The position numbers and the translations under genes were made by a program. A stretch of 64,000 nucleotides of DNA from IMG/VR virus record IMGVR_UViG_3300035210_000190. The stretch is one strand, 5' to 3'. How positions within the stretch are numbered: the stretch's first letter is position 1; every line of letters starts with the position of its first letter. The DNA comes from a virus. Its lineage: Duplodnaviria; Heunggongvirae; Uroviricota; Caudoviricetes. This document shows, in pieces, positions 198 through 60,283 of the stretch. Under the pieces are notes generated by a model, which was given only the letters and a program-made list of their open reading frames with translations, ran no database searches and was not told the origin of the DNA.

Positions 198-665
198 ATG
201 GAACTCATTGAAGATTTGACCGAAGAACAAATTATTGCACAAGCTGAGTTGAATAGTCGGCCAGATGATGCACCTTACTATTATATGTATTCCATTCTTC
301 GCACCGATATTCAGATGCTTGAAGGAAAAATGCTGTCTCAATCAGGACATGCGTTTACAGACGCTTTGAAGGCGGCACAGAAGAAGAAGCCAGAAGTTTG
401 TGAACAGTATCGAGCTTGGTGTAATGAACACAGTGATGCGTTTAATGGTGGTGCTAAGGTCAATATGAAAGCTAAAAACAGCTCTCAACTGGTCAAAGCC
501 TATAACTTGGCTCGCCGTGCTGGCCTTCCTTGTGCAATTGTTGTTGATCGTGGTCATATTCACCCACCACATTTCAATGGACAGTTGATTATCACTGCGT
601 TGGGCATTGGCCCTTGCACACAAGATGAAGCTCAGCACATTACTAAACGTTTTACTTGTTTTTAA
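198..665 (+). CDS. pth2: peptidyl-tRNA hydrolase, Pth2 family
   Basis: GKMLSQSGHA (cf. GKxAAQxxHA), IVVDRG and TALGIGP motifs; 155 aa. Confidence 0.85.
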   Translation: MELIEDLTEEQIIAQAELNSRPDDAPYYYMYSILRTDIQMLEGKMLSQSGHAFTDALKAAQKKKPEVCEQYRAWCNEHSDAFNGGAKVNMKAKNSSQLVKAYNLARRAGLPCAIVVDRGHIHPPHFNGQLIITALGIGPCTQDEAQHITKRFTCF

Positions 666-1683: not shown

Positions 1684-1712
1684 TTGATTTTTGTCTTAAT
1701 AAGTGTTATTAT
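1684..1712 (+). promoter_or_regulatory. sigma70-like promoter of the SRP RNA
   Basis: TTGATT-17 nt-TATTAT with extended TGn. Confidence 0.65.
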
Positions 1713-1729
1713 CCAAATATTGTCATAAT

Positions 1730-1838
1730 GGGAAACCTCTTCGGCCCTTATAACATTGCATCGAAAACCGAGTCAGGACCGGAAGGTAGCAGCTCTATTG
1801 GTGTTAATGTGTGTAAGTCAGTTTGGAGAGGTTTTCCT
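1730..1838 (+). ncRNA. ffs: bacterial small SRP RNA (4.5S RNA)
   Basis: Domain IV signature GAGU-CAGG-ACC-GGAA-GGU-AGCA-GCUC (1770-1795), A/C-rich asymmetric loop, long rod closed by GGGAAACCUCU/AGAGGUUUUCC, then a T-run. Confidence 0.9.
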
Positions 1839-1964
1839 TTTTTTGCGTTCCGTCATTTTTTATGTAATTTGTGAGCTGTTCCTCTTGTAAGAAAGAATCT
1901 TTTTATTATACTATTTGTATAGAAGTTGAATACCTCAGCTTCTGATGACCTCTACATGGAGTAT

Positions 1965-2249
1965 ATGGATATGACGACATACAAAGAAGGCTCGCTTTAC
2001 AAACTTTCAGTTGACTATTACCACAATATCACACTGCAGTGTACCTATATCGCTGATGGCTTTGTCTACTTTATAGACAATAATAAAGACATCAACTACA
2101 AAAAAAATCTCAAAACTAAAAAACTTTACATGTTCAATGCTCAATACCAGAGTTGGGATACTATTGAAGATTCCATCAAACCTTTGGCTGAAAATGAAGC
2201 GGTAGACAGACCACTGCCACCTAACCATTTTCAATTTCGTGGTGATTGA
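1965..2249 (+). CDS. hypothetical protein
   Basis: ORF with ggag RBS. Confidence 0.6.
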   Translation: MDMTTYKEGSLYKLSVDYYHNITLQCTYIADGFVYFIDNNKDINYKKNLKTKKLYMFNAQYQSWDTIEDSIKPLAENEAVDRPLPPNHFQFRGD

Positions 2250-2347: not shown

Positions 2348-3445
2348 ATGATTAACTCACTGCTTACTTTCTTCAAATTCTTGTTGTATAGTGAATCGAA
2401 TTTTTCCGTCAAAAAACTTTATTTAAACAATTATTTTGTATGTGCTAAGAATGGTCTAAACGCCGAAATTAGCATTACTGATCGCGTCATGTTCGTTAAA
2501 GCGTGGTCTACTGTTGATTATGTGGCTTTCTATTATTGCACACCTATGCTTTCAACTGATAATTCAGTTGACGATTTTGTGATTACAAACATTCAAAATT
2601 CCATTATGTTCGCCTTGCCTAAAAAACAATTGATTGAATATTTTGATAGTCATTCTTTATTTTTCAATCGGTTTAGCACCCGTGAATTTCCTGTTATTTT
2701 TGTAGGCGTTAGTTCATCAAATAAATCTGATGATACATACACTTATGATTTCATTCGGTTAAATAGTGTACGCTATCCAATTATTTATTTTACCAAGAAA
2801 AAAATCATTAGAAATGTATTCAAGTATCAATTGAATGCAATTAACAGAAAAGATAAATCCATTGTTAAAAACATTGCCTATTATGTTGGTGATGTATTAG
2901 TTTACCTTTCAGACATTGATTCTTTTTATAAGAGCAACGTCACAAAGGAATCTGCACAGAAGATGCGTTTTGGCTGGATGTCCGGGGCTTATTCAAATTA
3001 TGTCGATGATCAATCACAACAACCCGTAGTTGGCTTTCAAAACCAACTTTTTGAACATAATGAGATTGGAACCAAGCATCTTAATCTTAACAAAATTCAT
3101 ATGCTTAAAACAAAAAAAGATCAGTTCTGTCTTTTTACTAAAAATAAAAAACAATTACTGTTAAGTTACGTTGAGCTTTTTAATGTTAATGGTCAGACTA
3201 CTGTCAATTTAACGACATTAAGTTATTCAAAAGGCCGAGTGAATAAAAAGATTAAACCTGTTGATTTTGATATTGTAAAACAACATGAAATGGATATCAG
3301 TACAGGCGTGATGATGCATATTGACACATTTAAGTTAACACATCCTTCTGAGAACATTATTAATAGTCTGCATAAATTTGATATATCAACGAAACTACCA
3401 CTTAATCCTGATGACTTATTGATTCTAGATATGTGTCAGGTATGA
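2348..3445 (+). CDS. hypothetical protein, paralog family A (C-terminal MxxPhi tag)
   Basis: Shares YCTP, IYFTKKK and PLNPDDL with 4528..5673 and 5750..6820; ends LDMCQV. Confidence 0.85.
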   Translation: MINSLLTFFKFLLYSESNFSVKKLYLNNYFVCAKNGLNAEISITDRVMFVKAWSTVDYVAFYYCTPMLSTDNSVDDFVITNIQNSIMFALPKKQLIEYFDSHSLFFNRFSTREFPVIFVGVSSSNKSDDTYTYDFIRLNSVRYPIIYFTKKKIIRNVFKYQLNAINRKDKSIVKNIAYYVGDVLVYLSDIDSFYKSNVTKESAQKMRFGWMSGAYSNYVDDQSQQPVVGFQNQLFEHNEIGTKHLNLNKIHMLKTKKDQFCLFTKNKKQLLLSYVELFNVNGQTTVNLTTLSYSKGRVNKKIKPVDFDIVKQHEMDISTGVMMHIDTFKLTHPSENIINSLHKFDISTKLPLNPDDLLILDMCQV

Positions 3446-3516: not shown

Positions 3517-4431
3517 ATGAAAAAATCACTATTGCCATTTTTAATGGTTTCTTTACTTCCCACTTTTGTCAATGCAGCCTATCAAGTTCAATATAGTCAA
3601 CAACAGATAAATGGCGAAAATATTAGGTTTGTGAGTCAATCAAAATGGTTAACAACTACCCCCCTTATTTCGGAATGGGGTAATGATGGTGATGTTTTTG
3701 GCTGCTCTGCTTGGTCACCATTACCCAATACTGTGAGCTATGGAACATCATTTCAACAATCAGCCAATGATTGTCAGCAAAAACAAAAAAGAACTATTCA
3801 ACAAAGAGAACAGAATGATACATCACATGCTTATAGAGATGTGGGTGTTGCCACTGTAGAGACAAAAACCTTAACTGGGCAATACGGTTCTCAGTCATCC
3901 GTAGGCACTTTGGTTAAATGGATACCAGCTTCCCCCATTGTTTCTGATTGGGTCAATAGTGGTGCTCCAACAGGATGTGTTAATTGGACACCTGATCCAT
4001 CAACAATTACTACTGGTGTAGTATTTACACAAAATGCTACTGACTGTAATCAGCTACAAACAAGAACAGTTCAGAATAGAGAACAAAATGATGTCACACA
4101 AGAATACAGAAATGTTGGCACACCTACAACAGAAAATAAAACATTAACGAATCAACCACATAGCCGTCAATCTACAGGTACAAAGACACTTGATGAATGT
4201 TCATATGTTTATGGAAGTACAACCGTAATGTCAGCATGGATTGATAATGATGCAAATAAAAACATTGAAATCTGGTGGAAAGGTACTAAAATTATTGCGA
4301 CTACATCTAATGTTACGACTTATACGACAGGTGGATTTAAGTATCAAAGAACGGGTGCTTATATGAGAAGAGATGCTATGAACTCTAGTAACTGGTATCG
4401 TTACTACCAAATATGTAGAAGCCCTATCTAA
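3517..4431 (+). CDS. secreted Cys/Trp repeat protein (adhesin-like)
   Basis: Signal peptide; two ~90 aa repeats (W..GC..W.P.P.T...G..F.Q....DC.Q.Q.RT.Q.REQND). Confidence 0.8.
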   Translation: MKKSLLPFLMVSLLPTFVNAAYQVQYSQQQINGENIRFVSQSKWLTTTPLISEWGNDGDVFGCSAWSPLPNTVSYGTSFQQSANDCQQKQKRTIQQREQNDTSHAYRDVGVATVETKTLTGQYGSQSSVGTLVKWIPASPIVSDWVNSGAPTGCVNWTPDPSTITTGVVFTQNATDCNQLQTRTVQNREQNDVTQEYRNVGTPTTENKTLTNQPHSRQSTGTKTLDECSYVYGSTTVMSAWIDNDANKNIEIWWKGTKIIATTSNVTTYTTGGFKYQRTGAYMRRDAMNSSNWYRYYQICRSPI

Positions 4432-4527
4432 TGTTAGTTAAGATAAAAAGAGATTTTAGGATCTCTTTTTTGTTGCCTAAAATTGGTCTATTTGGTATAA
4501 TCGAACAAATTTTGATGGGTGAAAATT

Positions 4528-5673
4528 ATGTTCTATACAATTCTCAAAGCCTTTGGTTTCGCCATCTACAGCGAAAAAGACTTTTTCATCTCTAAAAAAG
4601 ATGACACTCATTTCAAAGTTATTGCAAAAAGTGGTTTATCAGCGAATGTCGAAATTACTGACAATACTATGTTTGTTGACCTTTTCGATCAATCCAAAGA
4701 GAATGTAGGTTATTATTGTACGCCACGGACTGACGCAGTGCTTTCTGTTGAAAATTTCGTTATTAAAAATATTCAAGACAGCATATTATTTACATTATCT
4801 AAAAAGGATCTTGTGGACTATCTTCGAACCTATAACACGTTGTTTAAAGAGGTTCGCAATATTTATATGCTCGTGAGTTATCTTGAAACTGACAATGCTG
4901 ATCTGCATTCAAAACGACTTAATAATGGTTATTTGTATAAGCATACTGAACATAATAAAGTTCATTATTCACATGTTTATTTCACAAAGAAAAAAGTTAT
5001 CAAAAACATAGTGCGATATAGTTTTCATATGACATCATTGCAGTCATTTGATAAGCATGAAGCCTCTCACGCCTATCTCATTGGTGACACTTTTTTTGAT
5101 GTGTGTAATATGGAGCAATTTATTAAATCAACGGCTGACGCTTCATTGGCTCATTATAGTTTTGATTCGACACACATTTCATATGGTATTAACAATCAAT
5201 TGAATGACCATTACCAGACTTACAAAGCGAATATTGATTTGAACAAAGTGGCAATCCTTAAACGTAAAAATAAAGACTATTGTTTGATGACAAAAAATAA
5301 AAGAAAAATTACATTACGTTATCTCACTGATTTTAATGTTAGGTATGCAGTGCTTGAAAAAGATCCGAGCTACAGCTCTGAGCGTGCGGAATTTAAAGGC
5401 AACGAAGTTCCAGTGTATAGGTATAAAGATAAAAAAATGATCACCTATACTTATTTCAATGGTCAACTACAATCAACCTCTAAAAGTTTTTCAGTTGATG
5501 AAGCTATTGAGCATGAGATTTCCATTAGCAATAGGTTAATGAATAATTTAGATTCGCTACGATTAAAATATCCATCTGACCAACTTATTCGTAAACTTCA
5601 AGATTTGGGGTTATCTTACGAAGCACCTTTAAATCCAGATGATCTATGTGTTTTGGCTATGATTGATATTTAG
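4528..5673 (+). CDS. hypothetical protein, paralog family A
   Basis: Paralog motifs; ends LAMIDI. Confidence 0.85.
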   Translation: MFYTILKAFGFAIYSEKDFFISKKDDTHFKVIAKSGLSANVEITDNTMFVDLFDQSKENVGYYCTPRTDAVLSVENFVIKNIQDSILFTLSKKDLVDYLRTYNTLFKEVRNIYMLVSYLETDNADLHSKRLNNGYLYKHTEHNKVHYSHVYFTKKKVIKNIVRYSFHMTSLQSFDKHEASHAYLIGDTFFDVCNMEQFIKSTADASLAHYSFDSTHISYGINNQLNDHYQTYKANIDLNKVAILKRKNKDYCLMTKNKRKITLRYLTDFNVRYAVLEKDPSYSSERAEFKGNEVPVYRYKDKKMITYTYFNGQLQSTSKSFSVDEAIEHEISISNRLMNNLDSLRLKYPSDQLIRKLQDLGLSYEAPLNPDDLCVLAMIDI

Positions 5674-5749: not shown

Positions 5750-6820
5750 ATGTTCACTAAAATACTAGAAATGTTGAAGCCGACTGTCTATAAAGATAAA
5801 TATTTTATTATCAAGAAAGATGATGAATTTTCTTATTCAATTAAAGCTACAAATGGACTTTATGGCACTATTAGTGTTTCGAATAACATTATGTTTGTTG
5901 ATATTTTTGTAGAACCAAAGCAATTTTTGACAAGATATTCAACTTCATTGACTGATGCCACAGTGTCCCTTGAAGATGCCATGATTTTGCATATTGGGAA
6001 CAATATTCTTTTTAAAGTAAAAGAAGGCTATGTTGATTCAATTATTCGGAACAATTATTCTTTTTTTAGGAATGTTCTAATTTCTGAACATATTTTTTCA
6101 CCTGAGTTATGGTCTGGTTCTCGCTTTGAAAAGTTTTACTACCCACATATAGTTTTTTCGAAAAAGAAAGTGGTAAAAAGTATTTACAGATACAGCTTCA
6201 AAGCTGTAAATTTGAAGGATCTTGATACATCTATTTCTCAATATTACATGATTGGTGAATATTTTTTTGCTATTTCTAATTTAAAAAACTATCTTGATCT
6301 GGTTATTGATAGTTCAAAGTTTGGTGCTCTAGTTTCATTAGGGATTGACAATCAATTAACTGAGGAAATTCCACTTTATAAAAAATATTTAAATACCTCT
6401 AATGTGTTGATGTTGAGCCGAAGCAGTGTCAGCTATTGCCATATCAAAAGAGAACGTAGAAAACTGATGATAGTCTATTTTGATAATTTTCATGATCGAT
6501 CAGCAGAACGCAAAGTAGATTCGTCATTCATTAAATTTATAAACATTTTAAAGTATGGCAAACAGTTTTATAGAATTAGCCGTATGGTGTCAGTCACTTG
6601 GCATAAAGGCAAAGTAACAACAAAGCAATCTTTATTTGATCAAGTTCTTGCAAAAAAACATGAAAAAGATGTTAGCAATATGGTGAAAGATGAATTTGAT
6701 GTTTTGCAACTCAAACACCCATCAAAAACCATCTTAAACACTCTTTCTGAACTTGGCTTGCCGGATTCTTTGCCTTTGTCTCGTGAAACCCTTACAGTAG
6801 TGGATATGTATCAGATTTAA
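5750..6820 (+). CDS. hypothetical protein, paralog family A
   Basis: Paralog motifs; ends VDMYQI. Confidence 0.85.
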   Translation: MFTKILEMLKPTVYKDKYFIIKKDDEFSYSIKATNGLYGTISVSNNIMFVDIFVEPKQFLTRYSTSLTDATVSLEDAMILHIGNNILFKVKEGYVDSIIRNNYSFFRNVLISEHIFSPELWSGSRFEKFYYPHIVFSKKKVVKSIYRYSFKAVNLKDLDTSISQYYMIGEYFFAISNLKNYLDLVIDSSKFGALVSLGIDNQLTEEIPLYKKYLNTSNVLMLSRSSVSYCHIKRERRKLMIVYFDNFHDRSAERKVDSSFIKFINILKYGKQFYRISRMVSVTWHKGKVTTKQSLFDQVLAKKHEKDVSNMVKDEFDVLQLKHPSKTILNTLSELGLPDSLPLSRETLTVVDMYQI

Positions 6821-10346: not shown

Positions 10347-10427
10347 TTTAAAATTGATATTTTTTTATAAAGCTTAATTTCGATTAAGCTTTTTTGTTTT
10401 TATCATGGAAAATGTTGAAAAAATAGC

Positions 10428-10456
10428 TTGACGGTACTGATGGTTTTCTTTATAAT
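10428..10456 (+). promoter_or_regulatory. strong sigma70-like promoter for the tRNA cluster
   Basis: TTGACG-17 nt-TATAAT. Confidence 0.75.
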
Positions 10457-10631
10457 TCTCACATCAAGACGAAACGGAGAAACACAATCTTGCAACAATG
10501 AACCAGCACTTCTTGCCAGTGGCTACTGTTAGGGTAAAGGTTTCGGCCTCCTGATATAACTTGTGAGTATGGATAACTACTCGGTGCGGATACAAATAGA
10601 GTAGGCCAATATGATATTATGCAACACCCAT

Positions 10632-10708
10632 GTCTGCGTAGCTCAGTTGGATAGAGCATCCGCCTTCTAAGCGGATGGTCGTTGGTTCGAATCCAACCGT
10701 AGACACCA
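10632..10708 (+). tRNA. tRNA-Arg(UCU)
   Basis: Cloverleaf; anticodon arm tccgc-ctTCTaa-gcgga; GGTTCGAATCC; encoded CCA. Confidence 0.95.
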
Positions 10709-10736
10709 ACTTTTCAAACAACATCCTCGGTGAACT

Positions 10737-11141
10737 ATGTCACTCTCAGCAGAAAAAACGAAAATTCTTCTTACTTTGGTCAATCAAAGCGTTGGTCGTT
10801 TGGCGGCAGAACGTGACAAGTTGTATGCCATTATCCCATCAGATAAAGATTTTGAAGTGGTTGCTCAATCTTTCAACATTAAGTTTGCTGCTTGTATTAA
10901 AATCCAAAAAATGGCTGAGAAATCAATTGATGAAGCTGCCATTGAAGGGATGGAAACTGATCATTTTAATCTGATGATTAAGTTGATTAACACTGAAATT
11001 GACTCTTTGGATGATTCCATTGACAGTCTGATTGTTACTGATGCGACTCTTGCTGTTCCTACCAAAGCGGCTATTCGCAAACACATTGATGTATTGCGTG
11101 AACTCAGTCGAGATTTGCTGGGTATGTTCAGTTACTCTTGA
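10737..11141 (+). CDS. hypothetical helical protein
   Basis: 134 aa ORF between tRNAs. Confidence 0.75.
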   Translation: MSLSAEKTKILLTLVNQSVGRLAAERDKLYAIIPSDKDFEVVAQSFNIKFAACIKIQKMAEKSIDEAAIEGMETDHFNLMIKLINTEIDSLDDSIDSLIVTDATLAVPTKAAIRKHIDVLRELSRDLLGMFSYS

Positions 11142-11147
11142 TACAAT

Positions 11148-11231
11148 GCCCGAGTGGTGGAATGGTAGACGCGGGGGACTTAAAATCCCCTTCCGTAAGG
11201 AGTGCCGGTTCGAGTCCGGCCTCGGGCACCA
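11148..11231 (+). tRNA. tRNA-Leu(UAA)
   Basis: gggga-ctTAAaa-tcccc arm, long variable arm, GGTTCGAGTCC, CCA. Confidence 0.95.
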
Positions 11232-11264
11232 ACTTTAAAAAACTTTATTATTGGAGATTGTATT

Positions 11265-11600
11265 ATGATTTGTGAATACAACCGATTCTTAATTTTTGGG
11301 CTTTCGATGTTATTTGGAGCATTAATCATCGGAAAGCTTTTGTCACTTATCCCTAAAACTCCAAAGTTTGGTTTTAAACCTGTTGTCCGTACAACTCGCT
11401 GGGGCAGTCGTAATTCCTATTCTTGCGACCCTTATACAGTGATGGCTCCGCCGATTTGGCATGAGGCTATTTTCATTTTAGTGTGTCTTGCTGGTTTCTT
11501 GGGCTTTTTTATATTCATGACAGGTATGTCAGGAAAAGATGATTTGAATTATAATTGCCGACCTTCAGATATTGTTCAATTTCTTAAAGCATTAGCTTAA
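11265..11600 (+). CDS. membrane protein (2 TM)
   Basis: ggag RBS; two hydrophobic segments. Confidence 0.7.
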   Translation: MICEYNRFLIFGLSMLFGALIIGKLLSLIPKTPKFGFKPVVRTTRWGSRNSYSCDPYTVMAPPIWHEAIFILVCLAGFLGFFIFMTGMSGKDDLNYNCRPSDIVQFLKALA

Positions 11601-11615
11601 TTGGTAGGAGTCATT

Positions 11616-11939
11616 ATGAGTTCTTTATATAAGTTTGAAAACAAAGTCATTGATAAAACCAATAAAGATGAATTGCGTAGCTATTTGGCAAATGCAAAAA
11701 AAGAGTTGGTTAAACTGCGTACAGCTTGTGGTTTTGATGAGAGTGTTGTTATCATTGAAGACCGTTCGCTGGTCAAGGTTTCGTTGGTTTGCAATGCTTT
11801 CTCTCTGGCTGTTCGTCATGGTGAGCAATCTTATAAGACTACTATCAAGCTGTTTAAGAATGGTAGTGTGATTCAAGAAATCAGTTTAGCAAATCTTTAC
11901 AATCCAAAGCTTATTGATCAATTGAAGGCTTTGGTGTAA
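11616..11939 (+). CDS. hypothetical protein
   Basis: aggag RBS. Confidence 0.7.
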   Translation: MSSLYKFENKVIDKTNKDELRSYLANAKKELVKLRTACGFDESVVIIEDRSLVKVSLVCNAFSLAVRHGEQSYKTTIKLFKNGSVIQEISLANLYNPKLIDQLKALV

Positions 11940-12144
11940 TCGCTGTTTTAAAGTTTTAACTTGTTGAAAAGAGATGCTGTTGTATTGCTGAAGCGGTGGT
12001 AGAAGTGCTGACGATTATTCTGCTACACAACAATACGATATGTCAGAAAGTCAGTATAGCAAGTTGAATGTGTTGACAGGTTTCCAATGTGAGTGCGTTT
12101 AAATCTCAATCGCATAATGTGTAGTTACTGTCAACACAACCTAT

Positions 12145-12229
12145 GCCCGAGTGGTGAAATGGTAGACACGGAAGACTTAAAATCTTCTTCTCTTCGAGAG
12201 TGCCGGTTCGAGTCCGGCCTCGGGCACCA
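12145..12229 (+). tRNA. tRNA-Leu(UAA), second copy
   Basis: gaaga-ctTAAaa-tcttc arm, variable arm, GGTTCGAGTCC, CCA. Confidence 0.95.
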
Positions 12230-13879: not shown

Positions 13880-14794
13880 ATGCCCATTATTTCGCTGGAA
13901 GAACTGAAGACAAAACCTGTGCCAATCACTTACGGCAAAGTTTTCAGCTATTCTTATTTTTTTGAAAACAAAACAATTACCATTGATATTGTCAATGAGC
14001 ATGAGTTCATGATTAATTTCATTTTTGAGGACGAAAAAGGTAAACGCAAATACAGTTATCTTGATAAGTCTTTTGCTAAAAGTGATTATTTGGAATCTTT
14101 TAAAAAGGGTAATTATCCGAAAAAACACTTTAATATCGATCATGGGTATATTCTTTATAACTGTATTTTTTCTTATCTTGATGAAGCAAGTCTGATCAAT
14201 GTTTTGGATGATTTTGGTTATTATTCAGAAGTCCCTTGCTCTAATGAGTATCAAAAAGCAGTTTTTGTCGATAATATATATTTTTTTGCAGCTTCAACTC
14301 ATAGGGATTCAAAGGAACGAAAATTCTCTATTTCAACTAAAACACATAATAATAGCACTTTTTATGATGATCAGTTAAGAATTGATTATATTGTCTCAGA
14401 AGACACAGTATATAAAACGATTGTCAAGACAGAAGAATCCTTATTTCCTTCAATTTTTAATCTTTTGCATTATTCTGAAAGGCTTAATTTTCATTGTGAT
14501 GTCAATATTTTTAATGATGACTTTACCTATTGTTTTTGGCCTAGTCATGAGTTTATCATGGTTAAATATTGTTCTGGTGAACTTAATATCAATAGCAAAA
14601 CTCGATTTTGTGAAGGTAATAAAACCAGAGATTATGATGAAATACAAAGAATTTTGACAATTTTGGTTTTTTACATGGTAAAAGATAAGCCAACTTCAGA
14701 GTTTAAGGCACTGTTCAAAGATATGTATGGTGATAATAAAATTAGTGACATGACAATAGATGAATTTAAATGCCTTGAAATGTATCAAATTTAA
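13880..14794 (+). CDS. hypothetical protein (C-terminal MxxPhi tag)
   Basis: 304 aa; ends LEMYQI. Confidence 0.8.
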   Translation: MPIISLEELKTKPVPITYGKVFSYSYFFENKTITIDIVNEHEFMINFIFEDEKGKRKYSYLDKSFAKSDYLESFKKGNYPKKHFNIDHGYILYNCIFSYLDEASLINVLDDFGYYSEVPCSNEYQKAVFVDNIYFFAASTHRDSKERKFSISTKTHNNSTFYDDQLRIDYIVSEDTVYKTIVKTEESLFPSIFNLLHYSERLNFHCDVNIFNDDFTYCFWPSHEFIMVKYCSGELNINSKTRFCEGNKTRDYDEIQRILTILVFYMVKDKPTSEFKALFKDMYGDNKISDMTIDEFKCLEMYQI

Positions 14795-17507: not shown

Positions 17508-17537
17508 CCATTAAATAAATTTAGAGATTGTAATTAC

Positions 17538-17729
17538 ATGTTATTAAAAGAACATCCAGAAGATGACACTATTCTCCATCAACGAGTATGGAACAAAGCA
17601 AAAACTCAGCAAGGTACGGTTGTCATTTTTGATCCAGAAGATCGTTATCCTAGTATTGATATTCAATGGGATGATGGGAAATTGTCTCAGCGTTGTTTCA
17701 TGATGTGTCTCGAAATCGAGATGGTCTAA
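17538..17729 (+). CDS. small hypothetical protein
   Basis: GTVV..IDIQWDDG, SH3-like pattern. Confidence 0.6.
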   Translation: MLLKEHPEDDTILHQRVWNKAKTQQGTVVIFDPEDRYPSIDIQWDDGKLSQRCFMMCLEIEMV

Positions 17730-19991: not shown

Positions 19992-20065
19992 GCGGAATTG
20001 GCATAATGGTTGTGCTCCAGCCTTCCAAGCTGGCTACACGAGTTCGATTCTCGTATTCCGCTCCA
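19992..20065 (+). tRNA. tRNA-Gly(UCC)
   Basis: ccagc-ctTCCaa-gctgg arm; AGTTCGATTC; acceptor gcggaat/attccgc; CCA. Confidence 0.92.
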
Positions 20066-52274: not shown

Positions 52275-53060
52275 ATGATAATGACTGACACTCAAAACAT
52301 GATGGTGACTTTGATCGAAAAGTTCTTGGATGAACATTTTCCGAATGACCCACGCAGTATTCGTCCAGTTGGTAGTGAATTTGCCGTAGACGTGGGTGTA
52401 GAACGCAATTTTAAATTGTCTTTTCGTCTGTTAAGTAACAGTGTCTACAATGTTGTTATTCATGAAGATCATTTTGACGCCATTGCTCCCCTTTTTGGTT
52501 TGAATGAATTTCAGCCGGAATCGACAAACATTCTCAATGACTTTATCCAAAGTCTCAATAAAAATGAAGCCTTCAAGCAAGTATTTAAACCTGTTCCGAT
52601 GGTTGACTTCAGTAAACATATGACGACTTATTCTAAGTTTGAAGACAGCTACAAAGACATTTATGATGCTGACGAAAGGGTTTCATTGATTACGAAAACA
52701 GGTAGCGTTAAACGCCAAGGTGTTGCTCAGTTTGCTTTTCGGTTCACCAAAACCAATAGACTGAAATGTTTGCCTGCTATTGCCTTGTTTTATGGCGAAG
52801 TGGCTTATTATCGAATCGGTGTGGGTTTTGACCTCGATAATCAAACCGTTCATAGCATTACTGAGACTGTTGATACCTATGAGGACTTTTTTGTTAGTAA
52901 CAAAGCGTTCAATTTTGAAACTGAAATCAATGCGTTTGTTGTTAACTTTTTGAATGACTGGATTACATGTTTTCATAAAGATCGCCCCGAAGAGTCATTT
53001 ATTTCAGATGATATGTCGTTTAAAGACAAATTGGAACTTTTTAAAATGAGTGCGATTTAA
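52275..53060 (+). CDS. hypothetical protein, paralog family C (MxxPhi tag)
   Basis: Paralog of 53962..54735 (KFLD.HFPND, DFSK, AQF..RFT); ends FKMSAI. Confidence 0.85.
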   Translation: MIMTDTQNMMVTLIEKFLDEHFPNDPRSIRPVGSEFAVDVGVERNFKLSFRLLSNSVYNVVIHEDHFDAIAPLFGLNEFQPESTNILNDFIQSLNKNEAFKQVFKPVPMVDFSKHMTTYSKFEDSYKDIYDADERVSLITKTGSVKRQGVAQFAFRFTKTNRLKCLPAIALFYGEVAYYRIGVGFDLDNQTVHSITETVDTYEDFFVSNKAFNFETEINAFVVNFLNDWITCFHKDRPEESFISDDMSFKDKLELFKMSAI

Positions 53061-58420: not shown

Positions 58421-60283
58421 TGAACTACCCCGCCCTGAAGGACGAAGTTTCTTGGGTGTTTGAAACCTTTCCCAATCGCTGACGTTCATTGTCAACTTCA
58501 AACAAAGCTGTCAGCTTCATTCGCACGGTTTCTCTTTTCATTTTGGACGGGCAATACTGCCCATCTTTCAACAGGTGAAAAGTGAACCGAAGAACTTCTT
58601 CGGTTATTCTGTTCCTTACATTTTTTGCTGCATTCTGATCAGCGTCTTCTTTATGACCACATGCATTACAATGAAAACTTCTTCCTTGTCTTACAGTGTG
58701 TTCCACACACTGACACTTTGAACAGGTTTTCGATGTATAGCTTGGCGTGGTCAAATGCACTCGAATGCCTTTATTGTTCGCTTGCTCTTGAAACCAATCT
58801 TTAATGCTCGACAATCTTAACAATCGAATAAGCTTTGAATATTTTATATTTAATGTTTCATCTTTGATGAAAGAGGCTTTACATTGTGAAAGATTGAGAT
58901 CTTCTAATACAATATCGGTTATTCCATCATCTATTAAGTTTTTTAAAGTCTTAGATATAAGTTCTTTAAAATGGAATTCTACACCGCCTAATAGCTTATT
59001 AAATTGAGCTTGTTCGTGTTGCGTTAATTGTTTAAACCCTTTCTTCTCAAAAGATTGTAGAGACTCTACAACCTTTTGAACATACTCACGATTATAATCA
59101 ATGGCTATTTCTCGATCATGAAAAGCAATGGTACAGAAGTTTGAAGCAACGTTTATATCAATGCCACATACAGCTTTTTTATCAATGATGCTGTCTTTTT
59201 CAAGAGGTTTAAAATATTCTGTTTCATCTTCATAAGTTAAACCAATTTCAATACGATTTTTTCGATTTAGTCGAACTGTATGAATCGCTTCAAGGTTAAA
59301 ATCATTAATGTCATTGTGATATTTAGGATTAAAGGCCAAAGGAACATGAATATGTTCCTTCCCAATCCTAAAATTATACCAATATTTGTACTCATTTGTT
59401 TCATCAACATGAATATAAGAATGTTTAGTTTGTCCGATTCTAGGTATTTTCATGTAAGACCCAGTAGAAAACACAATCGGTGATTTCATGGATTTTAACA
59501 TTCTCATTTGTTTTCGAAGCAACAGTGCTTTAACTCTGTCCCAAAGAAAAACTTCGACACCTTCGGTAGTATAATGTCTTTTATCTCTTAATGCATTAAG
59601 CCTTGCGTTAAAGTCTTCAATGTCTTGAATTTTTTTGGGATTATTTTCACCTTCTTTATGAGCTTTTAAAACAGAATCAAGCATTGAATGATCAACATAG
59701 ATTAACCAATTCATCAAATTGGTTAATGACGTATTTTTATGAATGACTTCTATTTTTTTTACATCACCTTTAGATGCGATAGTATTTCCCAACTTACCTG
59801 TTACTTTTCGTTTGTATTTAGTCACTTTATACTCTTTTTGAAGAACAAACTTTTGATTATCAGTAAGCTTATCGACCCAATTTGAATAAAAATCTACAAC
59901 TTGTTGGTATATTTTTTGAACTTCCCAAGAATATAATTCGGAACAATTGAATTGTTTCGCATGGGAAATAAGTGTATGTTTAGAAGTCGAAGAAAGAAGT
60001 GAAAGTTTATGTTCAAAGATATATTGAGAAATTTCGTTTTTAAGGGATTTAACAAAAGCAAAATGCTCAACAAAACGATCTGTCTTCTTCGAATTAATAA
60101 TTGAAGAAGCAGAAATGCGTTTAGCTTTAATTTTTTGTTTGCCTGAGCTACCGTAAGCCATTAGTTTTCCTATAAAAAGTCTTGCTAAATTATACAATGT
60201 ATTCGATAACAAAGCAAGCTAAAAAGTAAAGAAAACAAAAAAGAAAGAAAATACTTATCCCCCACCTGAAGGAAGGGGTTTTG
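58421..60283 (-). mobile_element. non-autonomous IS200/IS605-family element (tnpB only, IS1341-like)
   Basis: Subterminal hairpins on the minus strand: LE aaaccccttccttcaggtggggga (~60257-60282), RE aaacttcgtccttcagggcggggtagttca (to 58421); no tnpA; boundaries approximate. Confidence 0.75.
58425..60161 (-). CDS. tnpB: RNA-guided endonuclease TnpB (large, ~578 aa)
   Basis: RuvC I GIDIN, RuvC II VLEDL, YTSKTCSKC...CNACGH zinc ribbon, RuvC III ADQNAAKN. Confidence 0.9.
   Translation of the reverse strand: MAYGSSGKQKIKAKRISASSIINSKKTDRFVEHFAFVKSLKNEISQYIFEHKLSLLSSTSKHTLISHAKQFNCSELYSWEVQKIYQQVVDFYSNWVDKLTDNQKFVLQKEYKVTKYKRKVTGKLGNTIASKGDVKKIEVIHKNTSLTNLMNWLIYVDHSMLDSVLKAHKEGENNPKKIQDIEDFNARLNALRDKRHYTTEGVEVFLWDRVKALLLRKQMRMLKSMKSPIVFSTGSYMKIPRIGQTKHSYIHVDETNEYKYWYNFRIGKEHIHVPLAFNPKYHNDINDFNLEAIHTVRLNRKNRIEIGLTYEDETEYFKPLEKDSIIDKKAVCGIDINVASNFCTIAFHDREIAIDYNREYVQKVVESLQSFEKKGFKQLTQHEQAQFNKLLGGVEFHFKELISKTLKNLIDDGITDIVLEDLNLSQCKASFIKDETLNIKYSKLIRLLRLSSIKDWFQEQANNKGIRVHLTTPSYTSKTCSKCQCVEHTVRQGRSFHCNACGHKEDADQNAAKNVRNRITEEVLRFTFHLLKDGQYCPSKMKRETVRMKLTALFEVDNERQRLGKVSNTQETSSFRAG

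Follow-up and report, generated by a model that had tools for sequence, protein, structure and literature searches.

The SRP RNA gene is treated as an essential, single-copy gene of the chromosome. Jumbo and huge phages are known to carry cargo that supports translation, in the form of tRNA arrays, tmRNA, bS21, HPF, Pth2 and RNA ligases. tRNAs and translation genes occur on large plasmids as well (PMC8628078), and the Pseudomonas megaplasmids pMPPla107 and pBASL58, ~1 Mb in size with a GC content of 53-55%, carry dozens of tRNAs together with efflux pumps (PMC6482414). A literature search at the level of titles and the starts of abstracts gave no description of an SRP RNA gene encoded by a phage or a plasmid.

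The DNA analyzed here is a stretch of 64,000 nucleotides from an IMG/VR virus record (IMGVR_UViG_3300035210_000190), termed the window below. A preliminary description made from the sequence had proposed that it encodes an SRP (4.5S) RNA carried by a mobile element, with its own promoter and terminator. We have analyzed this RNA, its relatives and the DNA in which they are found.

A full-length SRP RNA gene

The covariance model of the small bacterial SRP RNA (RF00169, Bacteria_small_SRP) matched the plus strand of the window at 1737-1833 with a score of 60.1 bits (cut-off 40, E 1e-10), and the match extends over the full length of the model, i.e. positions 1-97 of 97. The sequence folds into a single rod of 108 nt (1730-1837) with a predicted stability of -40.3 kcal/mol (z -4.52); in 200 shuffled sequences no fold was as stable. 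The helix-8 pattern occurs once, where 0.01 occurrences would be expected by chance. The helix-8 signature, the segments of the paired rod and the closing stem followed by a T-run, on which the preliminary description had based its assignment, are all found where it had placed them, in both the sequence and the predicted fold, and the match to the family model bears the assignment out. By every sequence feature examined the RNA is a member of RF00169, with a rod of ~108 nt that lacks an Alu domain. The elements of the gene and other features of the window are collected in Table 1.

Table 1. Positions of the SRP RNA, its elements and other features in the window.
Feature	Position	Strand	Basis or remark
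Predicted sigma-70 promoter, -35 TTGATT (1684-1689) and -10 TATTAT (1707-1712)	1684-1712	+	predicted start ~1719
Second extended -10-like box TG-T-CATAAT, abutting the rod	1721-1729	+	similar in 4/5 copies (alignment)
Predicted mature SRP (4.5S) RNA	1730-1837	+	ends inferred from closing stem
Closing stem	1730-1744 with 1823-1837	+	sequence and fold
Helix 8, Ffh M-domain and FtsY-recruiting tip	1765-1797	+	invariant in 5/5 copies
Asymmetric loop AAACC/UA (5x2)	1765-1769 / 1796-1797	+	sequence and fold
Symmetric loop CAGG/AGCA	1774-1777 / 1788-1791	+	sequence and fold
GGAA tetraloop	1781-1784	+	sequence and fold
C-loop position, single slipping U bulge	1804-1805	+	predicted fold
Distal bulged G (G1811) in motif GUGUA, 27 nt past tetraloop	1811-1815	+	predicted fold
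T7 run after closing stem, possible intrinsic termination	1838-1844	+	sequence
92-aa gene, most stable downstream neighbor	1971-2249	+	3' of RNA in window, L018, L019 and L021; not L020
Peptidyl-tRNA hydrolase Pth2 gene	198-665	+	Pfam PF01981, E 1e-18
tRNA-Arg(TCT) and two tRNA-Leu(TAA)	10632-12229	+	element's own
tRNA-Gly(TCC)	19992-20065		element's own

In a control set of Actinomycetota exactly one copy was found in 37 of 41 genomes (35 of 39 when the unpublished G009 and G026 are left out), with scores of 49-82 bits, so that of the window lies within this range. Two other candidates were rejected as SRP RNAs. L001 is a chance match in coding sequence and fails Rfam. L010, at 2982-3041 of a 46-kb IMG/VR record, is an SRP-like hairpin of ~60 nt that corresponds to the tip only; it lies between tRNAs and near a tmRNA, and its score is below the Rfam cut-off.

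Conservation and covariation

Scans with exact patterns gave four distinct relatives, L018 (which has the same sequence as IMG/VR record G002), L019, L020 and L021. Over the 108 nt of the RNA, their identity to the window copy is 91, 96, 74 and 93%, respectively, whereas the 60-nt flanks on either side of the window copy are 23-63% identical to those of the four relatives. We analyzed covariation in the five related sequences using the structure of the window copy. 99% of cells are paired, and there is double-sided change at 11 of the 40 pairs, most of it contributed by L020. None of 500 shuffles gave a value as high, and controls in which the alignment was slid were 38-46% paired. Both helices of the tip are without variation in all five copies. 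These comparisons support the view that this is an authentic SRP RNA gene of the small bacterial type, under structural selection.

The same data bear on whether the sequence could be a captured host gene or the remnant of an integration site, now without function. Prophages are known to use the ffs gene for attachment (PMC12540744), and several IMG/VR matches are host ffs genes lying beside integrase-like genes. Yet the gene in the window is complete, adapted to AT-rich DNA, covarying and far better conserved than its flanks, and this largely refutes a remnant, which we find scarcely credible. An attachment site was also rejected directly, as a search of the window, G001 and G002 gave no second occurrence of any 14-mer from the gene, and there is no adjacent integrase.

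Close copies of the RNA are found in other samples. Contigs in four further runs, probably of DNA, contain it with 2-6 differences, with both flanks either replaced or not covered, and two of these four runs also contain a second, more distant form. At least half of the sampled words are present in seven peat-metagenome runs, one of which may be the source; the other six are of the same year, and may come from one campaign. With the RNA as the query, BLASTN gave no match in 72,556 plasmid or 50,697 GenBank phage records. A query with the Pseudomonas ffs gave none in the same phage records and matched only six records of the plasmid collection, all of which resemble chromosomes or pieces of chromosomes. 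Among 185,579 GTDB genomes, a set that may lack very close records, the invariant 29-nt core is found in just 10 records, all Acidimicrobiales. These were considered as a donor and rejected; the tip is common to both, but the distal G of the Acidimicrobiales copies is in the +29 register (see below). L003, L007 and L013, from IMG/VR records, are the 3' halves of Pseudomonas-type ffs genes that adjoin integrase-like genes, consistent with an integration site in ffs.

The upstream neighbors of the RNA vary among the five copies. In L019 the Pth2 gene lies directly upstream of it, but in G002 it is ~16 kb away, and a Pth2 search of viral contigs gave no match. The downstream 92-aa gene belongs with 15 homologous clusters at 65-99% identity.

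Promoter and 3' end

The predicted promoter upstream of the rod has a spacer of 17 nt that ends in TG-T, and it agrees with the consensus at 9 of 12 positions with the extended TG present. A scan found three such sites where 2.1 +/- 1.4 were expected, so that the site at 1684-1712 is not above chance when taken by itself. However, the layout TTG-(16 or 17)-TGtTAT(T/C)(A/C)T recurs in four of the five copies, being absent from L020. The promoter claimed in the preliminary description thus survives as a recurrent pattern rather than as a site significant in its own right. The second box at 1721-1729 may be leader sequence or an alternative promoter. It is less likely to be the main one, because transcription starting from this box would begin within the closing stem, which covaries, and the upstream site is therefore the probable main promoter.

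The claim of a terminator holds for the closing stem and the T7 run that follows it, but a terminator scan found no classical terminator at the 3' end of the SRP RNA. A separate terminator hairpin was rejected, and the 3' signal is the closing stem of the RNA itself together with T7. Note that the T-run is weak evidence for termination because the DNA is AT-rich.

The distal end of the RNA

We compared the end of the rod distal to the tetraloop with that of reference copies. Of 35 that were folded, 27 fitted the search pattern and the remaining 8 were dropped; the 27 comprise 3 enterobacterial or Aeromonas copies, the Pseudomonas copy L003 (named from its LigA neighbor), 3 others from prophage flanks and 20 from Actinomycetota. 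An unpaired G at +27 from the tetraloop is present in all five element copies and in all four gammaproteobacterial copies, while it is at +28 or +29 in most other references. We take this to be the equivalent of E. coli G83, the base that is inserted into the GTPase site. Insertion of an RNA base of the distal region to induce hydrolysis is described in PMC5454536.

The surroundings of this G differ from those in the references. The motif GUGUA is found in all five element copies and in none of the 27 references, 21 of which have GUGCC. A bulge three bases past the distal G is predicted in 4/4 gammaproteobacterial copies but is absent from 5/5 element copies, although it is missing also from two low-GC references, L008 and L017. 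The predicted C-loop is a one-base U bulge in the window and three relatives (0/27 references), and a 2x3 loop in L020. The distal stem is predicted to be ~2 bp shorter than in gammaproteobacterial copies. All these loops are minimum-energy predictions in a segment that is rich in AU and GU pairs and may breathe, and the gammaproteobacterial references are four in number. When a model of the family was scored against outside copies the Pseudomonas ffs was at the top with 69.9 bits, followed by the next at 56.6 bits. The predicted folds suggest that of the gammaproteobacterial distal site the unpaired G at +27 has been kept, and that GUGCC with its bulged C has not. They also make it doubtful that the C-loop is open in the window and three relatives.

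In E. coli RNA with a closed C-loop, translocon-stimulated GTPase activation was abolished while assembly was unchanged (PMC5454536, section 7). This, the altered motif, the missing second bulge and the one-base C-loop, together with the invariance of the tip, raise the possibility that the RNA binds Ffh and recruits FtsY but acts as a slow-cycling or stalling modulator, or as a decoy, that reshapes the targeting of host membrane proteins. Slow cycling would follow from the alteration of the distal site of GTPase activation. However, compensatory changes preserve the whole rod, and the G remains at +27, neither of which a pure decoy would need; the C-loop of L020 is an ordinary 2x3, two references also lack the second bulge, and the comparison is with four gammaproteobacterial copies only. 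We regard such a modulator as a minority possibility, and as the main rival of the explanation preferred below. The change at the distal end also makes titration of Ffh, which the preliminary description had mentioned, somewhat more plausible.

Carrier of the gene

The window has 30-38% GC, and Pfam matches were obtained for 12 of its 94 proteins; none of these is a core chromosomal protein except Pth2, which is common in phages. It is identical to IMG/VR record G001 over 14,413 bases. The SRP RNA is present on metagenome contigs of 1,539,155 (L018) and 1,859,102 bases (L019), and the neighboring small gene and the DnaK clade of the family are found on contigs of 1.84-1.92 Mb. The sequence read comprises the window, G001 (85 kb), G002 (290 kb), G008 (437 kb; a relative of the family whose fragment has no SRP RNA) and four loci. 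In total this is 915,920 bases, with some redundancy, and covers less than half of a single replicon of 1.5-1.9 Mb.

Contigs of this length are of chromosomal size, and the unread part could encode an Ffh and FtsY. The RNA would then be either the ordinary ffs of an AT-rich cell's chromosome or part of a private SRP of the element. There is one copy of the RNA per fragment, as on a chromosome, and the relatives have host-like genes as singletons: TyrRS, SerRS, TrpRS, a short ThrRS, GatA/B, TilS, DnaK, PyrH, LigA and Adk, and further HPF, signal peptidase I, HtpX, HflK-like, SohB-like, Bax1-I (YccA-like) and SspB-like proteins, Pth2 and several RNA ligases. One PyrH relative carries the source label 'archaeon'.

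The remaining gene content is unlike that of a chromosome. The core-like genes are scattered singly among orphan genes, with DnaK lacking dnaJ or grpE and pyrH lying outside its usual operon. NCBIfam matches were obtained for 35 of 750 small ORFs (those with an ATG start and 55-230 aa, excluding ORFs with the common C-terminal motif of the family), so that ~95% have none, and bS21 is the sole ribosomal protein among them. The larger ORFs were scanned for 141 of 177 in G001/G002 and 114 of 162 in G008. A tblastn search of the 915,920 bases with the str-S10-spc-alpha region, Ffh and FtsY gave adk as the sole match, and EF-G, EF-Tu, RpoA and the main ribosomal-protein operon were not found there. 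SecY, YidC and 16S gave no match in the element fragments read, which are less than half of the replicon, and G001, G002 and G008 contain neither an SRP54 domain nor a tmRNA above cut-off. The six Ffh- or FtsY-like loci found in IMG/VR by a search of low sensitivity are all unlike element DNA, and the GTDB genomes contain the invariant core only in the Acidimicrobiales records noted above. Given these observations we regard an ffh and ftsY on the same replicon as unlikely.

The preliminary description had called the carrier a mobile element, had named ffh and ftsY as genes to seek in the rest of the replicon, and had recognized an ordinary chromosome as the counter-case. Neither gene is in the related fragments read, which cover less than half of the replicon, and the surroundings are not those of a chromosome; that the carrier is mobile is a deduction from these surroundings rather than an observation. 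Because the fragments in IMG/VR were chosen for their virus-like content and more than half of the 1.5-1.9 Mb is unread, ffh or ribosomal operons could lie elsewhere, and a chromosome retains some probability. We conclude that the carrier is very probably a giant extrachromosomal element.

The cargo includes a PilV-like shufflon domain as well as efflux pumps and a chemoreceptor, all of a kind found on plasmids. They tell against a megabase-scale phage in which the RNA would replace host 4.5S RNA destroyed in infection, as does the lack of any clear head or tail gene among the 94 proteins of the window, where the one exception is a protein with an SLT domain. Terminase_6N is absent from G001 and G002, although these are fragments and it is absent also from the phage-like G003. 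G001, G002 and G008 are nevertheless classed as viral by IMG/VR, several window proteins match PHROGs, and one matches jumbo phages of the GAP32/CBB type with 25-31% identity. Moreover, in the unrelated IMG/VR records G003 (497 kb) and G004 (372 kb) a small SRP RNA is surrounded by tRNAs and SRP54 gave no match, and the larger has a baseplate-like gene. A search for gp23 was uninformative, as the controls also gave no match. To our knowledge 1.5-1.9 Mb is well above the size of known phage genomes, and we consider a phage whose RNA replaces that of the host distinctly improbable. The element as such may be either a plasmid or a phage.

Protein searches for a named plasmid related to the element gave distant matches or none. 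The closest named relatives of the family DnaK, among the best 120 of 8,000 scored, are those of Pseudomonas and Azotobacter at 73%. The host of the carrier is perhaps a member of the Pseudomonadaceae, a suggestion based on this DnaK match and the layout of the RNA only. The carrier family has contigs of 1.5-1.9 Mb, ~30-35% GC and its own DnaK and PyrH clades. Its similarity to named plasmids and phages is distant at best, and it may represent a type of giant element that has not been described before.

Several other features of this family were observed. A C-terminal motif D-L-x-(L/V)-(L/I)-(E/D)-M-x-x-(I/V/Y) is common to many otherwise unrelated orphan proteins. It is present in the window in the ORFs at 2348-3445, 4519-5673, 5750-6820, 13880-14794 and 52275-53060, and in many ORFs of G001, G002 and G008; the counts in element sequences are 8/55, 39/244 and 12/66 ORFs, against 0/125 in G003. 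It is possibly a sorting or secretion signal. Secreted-looking proteins with an N-terminal Y-x-x-K-I/M-P-L-E and internal repeats, often in tandem, are encoded in the window (3517-4431), L018, L019, L021 and L079. A 595-aa TnpB/Cas12f-like protein (58425-60212, minus strand) is conserved in G002. The intergenic sequences at 10420-10622 and 17532-17719 are 72-81% conserved in G002, where the first is multicopy, and have no Rfam match; they are candidates for novel structured RNAs or repeats.

tRNAs and translation cargo

The window encodes tRNAs of its own (Table 1), and G002 has 35 tRNAs in its 290 kb, including 10 Leu(TAA) and 4 Arg(TCT). TTA accounts for 25% of leucine codons in the window and AGA for 24% of arginine codons, and this usage together with the repetition of the corresponding tRNAs would fit an AT-rich replicon in a host richer in GC. 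In G002, where the tRNAs noted here lie in L033, L040, L041 and L045, there are also tRNAs with AAC and AGA anticodons, which are unusual in bacteria. tRNAs with a CTA anticodon, resembling amber suppressors, are found in L018 (1468-1542 and 2477-2551), L021 (818-891), G002 and G008, while TAG is the rarest stop codon. In G008 bS21 adjoins the hibernation factor HPF, with TilS near (L071, 1506-1688 and 1995-2315). In G003 and G004 a large array of tRNAs encloses the SRP RNA (L002 and L005), a gene resembling an elongation factor is close by, and the baseplate-like gene of G003 is elsewhere in that record.

The SRP RNA would be one item of a kit supporting translation and membrane biogenesis, whose other members may include the extra tRNAs, synthetases, bS21, HPF, Pth2, RNA ligases, signal peptidase I, HtpX and the YccA-like protein. 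Most of the genes of this kit were found in the relative G008, the fragment without SRP RNA.

E. coli 4.5S RNA binds EF-G, and the cargo near the RNA is centered on translation (Pth2, tRNAs, bS21 and HPF). The main role of the RNA could therefore lie in binding EF-G, or in another translational function, instead of targeting. However, invariance extends over the entire tip that binds Ffh, and the length of the rod is kept, with nothing specific to EF-G, and we consider this role very improbable.

Probable function

The tip of SRP RNA binds Ffh at its M-domain and recruits FtsY, as is established and described in PMC5454536. Our preferred explanation, held with moderate confidence, is that the element carries a complete SRP RNA gene that acts as a spare 4.5S RNA on host Ffh, the carrier being a likely giant, AT-rich replicon. 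Of the roles named in the preliminary description, supplementing or replacing the 4.5S RNA of the host stays the most plausible. Host sigma-70 polymerase would transcribe the gene from the promoter at 1684-1712, a short leader would be trimmed, and the transcript would end at the T-run. The RNA would load onto host Ffh by its invariant tip and recruit FtsY at the tetraloop, creating a hybrid SRP. The benefit to the element might be insurance for when the stable RNA of the host is cut or limiting, or when Ffh is destabilized.

Known properties of 4.5S RNA bear on the form of this benefit. It stabilizes Ffh, and the level of LacY in E. coli changed little or not at all when 4.5S RNA alone was supplied in excess (PMC2921155). 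Free 4.5S RNA already exists in the cell, amounting to 16% of tracked molecules (PMC9499511). Since extra RNA has little or no effect and free RNA is present, a spare copy should help only if the host RNA is depleted. Insurance is therefore more plausible than a simple boost, and would agree with the number of RNA ligases and the repetition of tRNAs in the element.

The signal sequence of the substrate is read by Ffh. ORFs with hydrophobic segments number 7/97 in the window, 55/406 in G002 and 18/115 in G001, so that the element is not rich in them. This argues against a supplement driven by demand, and demand from an element rich in membrane proteins was rejected on these counts. Nor do we find support for the earlier suggestion that the RNA biases targeting toward proteins of the element, given that it is Ffh that reads the signal sequence and that the ORFs are not rich in hydrophobic segments. 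A more radical proposal would be that an undescribed family of 1.5-1.9 Mb replicons, without Ffh or FtsY, with the Ffh-binding tip intact and with a re-engineered distal site (GUGUA and a collapsed C-loop), retunes or throttles host targeting by RNA alone; we regard this as speculative, with a low but appreciable probability.

The element copy provides a direct test of why a spare 4.5S RNA should be needed, for example whether defense nucleases cut the host copy. The natural variant with GUGUA and a collapsed C-loop likewise provides a test of the model of GTPase activation at the distal site that was derived from E. coli.

Comparison with known systems

A phage is known that has ffs sequence on a mobile element, as here, in connection with attachment at ffs. 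In that case, reported in PMC12540744, the phage has a core of 27 nt and interrupts the gene of its host, whereas here the whole gene is present, as an independent one, with no att repeat.

The megaplasmids pMPPla107 and pBASL58 resemble the element in having tRNA genes, tRNA ligases and efflux pumps, and their translation genes have been proposed to offset the cost of translation. They differ in being smaller and in their GC content, 53-55% against about 30-38% here, and the main text of PMC6482414 mentions neither ffs nor signal recognition. Membership of this family is ruled out by the GC mismatch, and five proteins of the element family have no close plasmid match.

Jumbo and huge phages carry the same kind of host-support cargo. 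No SRP RNA was found in the 50,697 GenBank phage records, however, and no virion genes were seen in the element fragments. Since an SRP RNA lies among the tRNAs of G003 and G004, this cargo is not unique to the element. With a selected, full-length copy on what is likely a giant mobile replicon, protein targeting would be added to the translation cargo (tRNA, tmRNA and bS21) known from phages and megaplasmids.

The closest comparison is with the ffs of Pseudomonas and RF00169 itself. In common are the match to the full length of the model, GGAA, CAGG/AGCA, the 5x2 loop, the rod of ~108 nt and the G at +27. By contrast with the Pseudomonas gene, the element copy is AT-rich, has GUGUA in place of GUGCC, a one-base predicted C-loop in 4/5 copies and a shorter distal stem, and it lies among orphan genes on a replicon that is likely to be extrachromosomal, where the fragments read contain neither ffh nor ftsY. 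The SRP RNA gene is real and under selection, and both its setting and its distal end are unusual.
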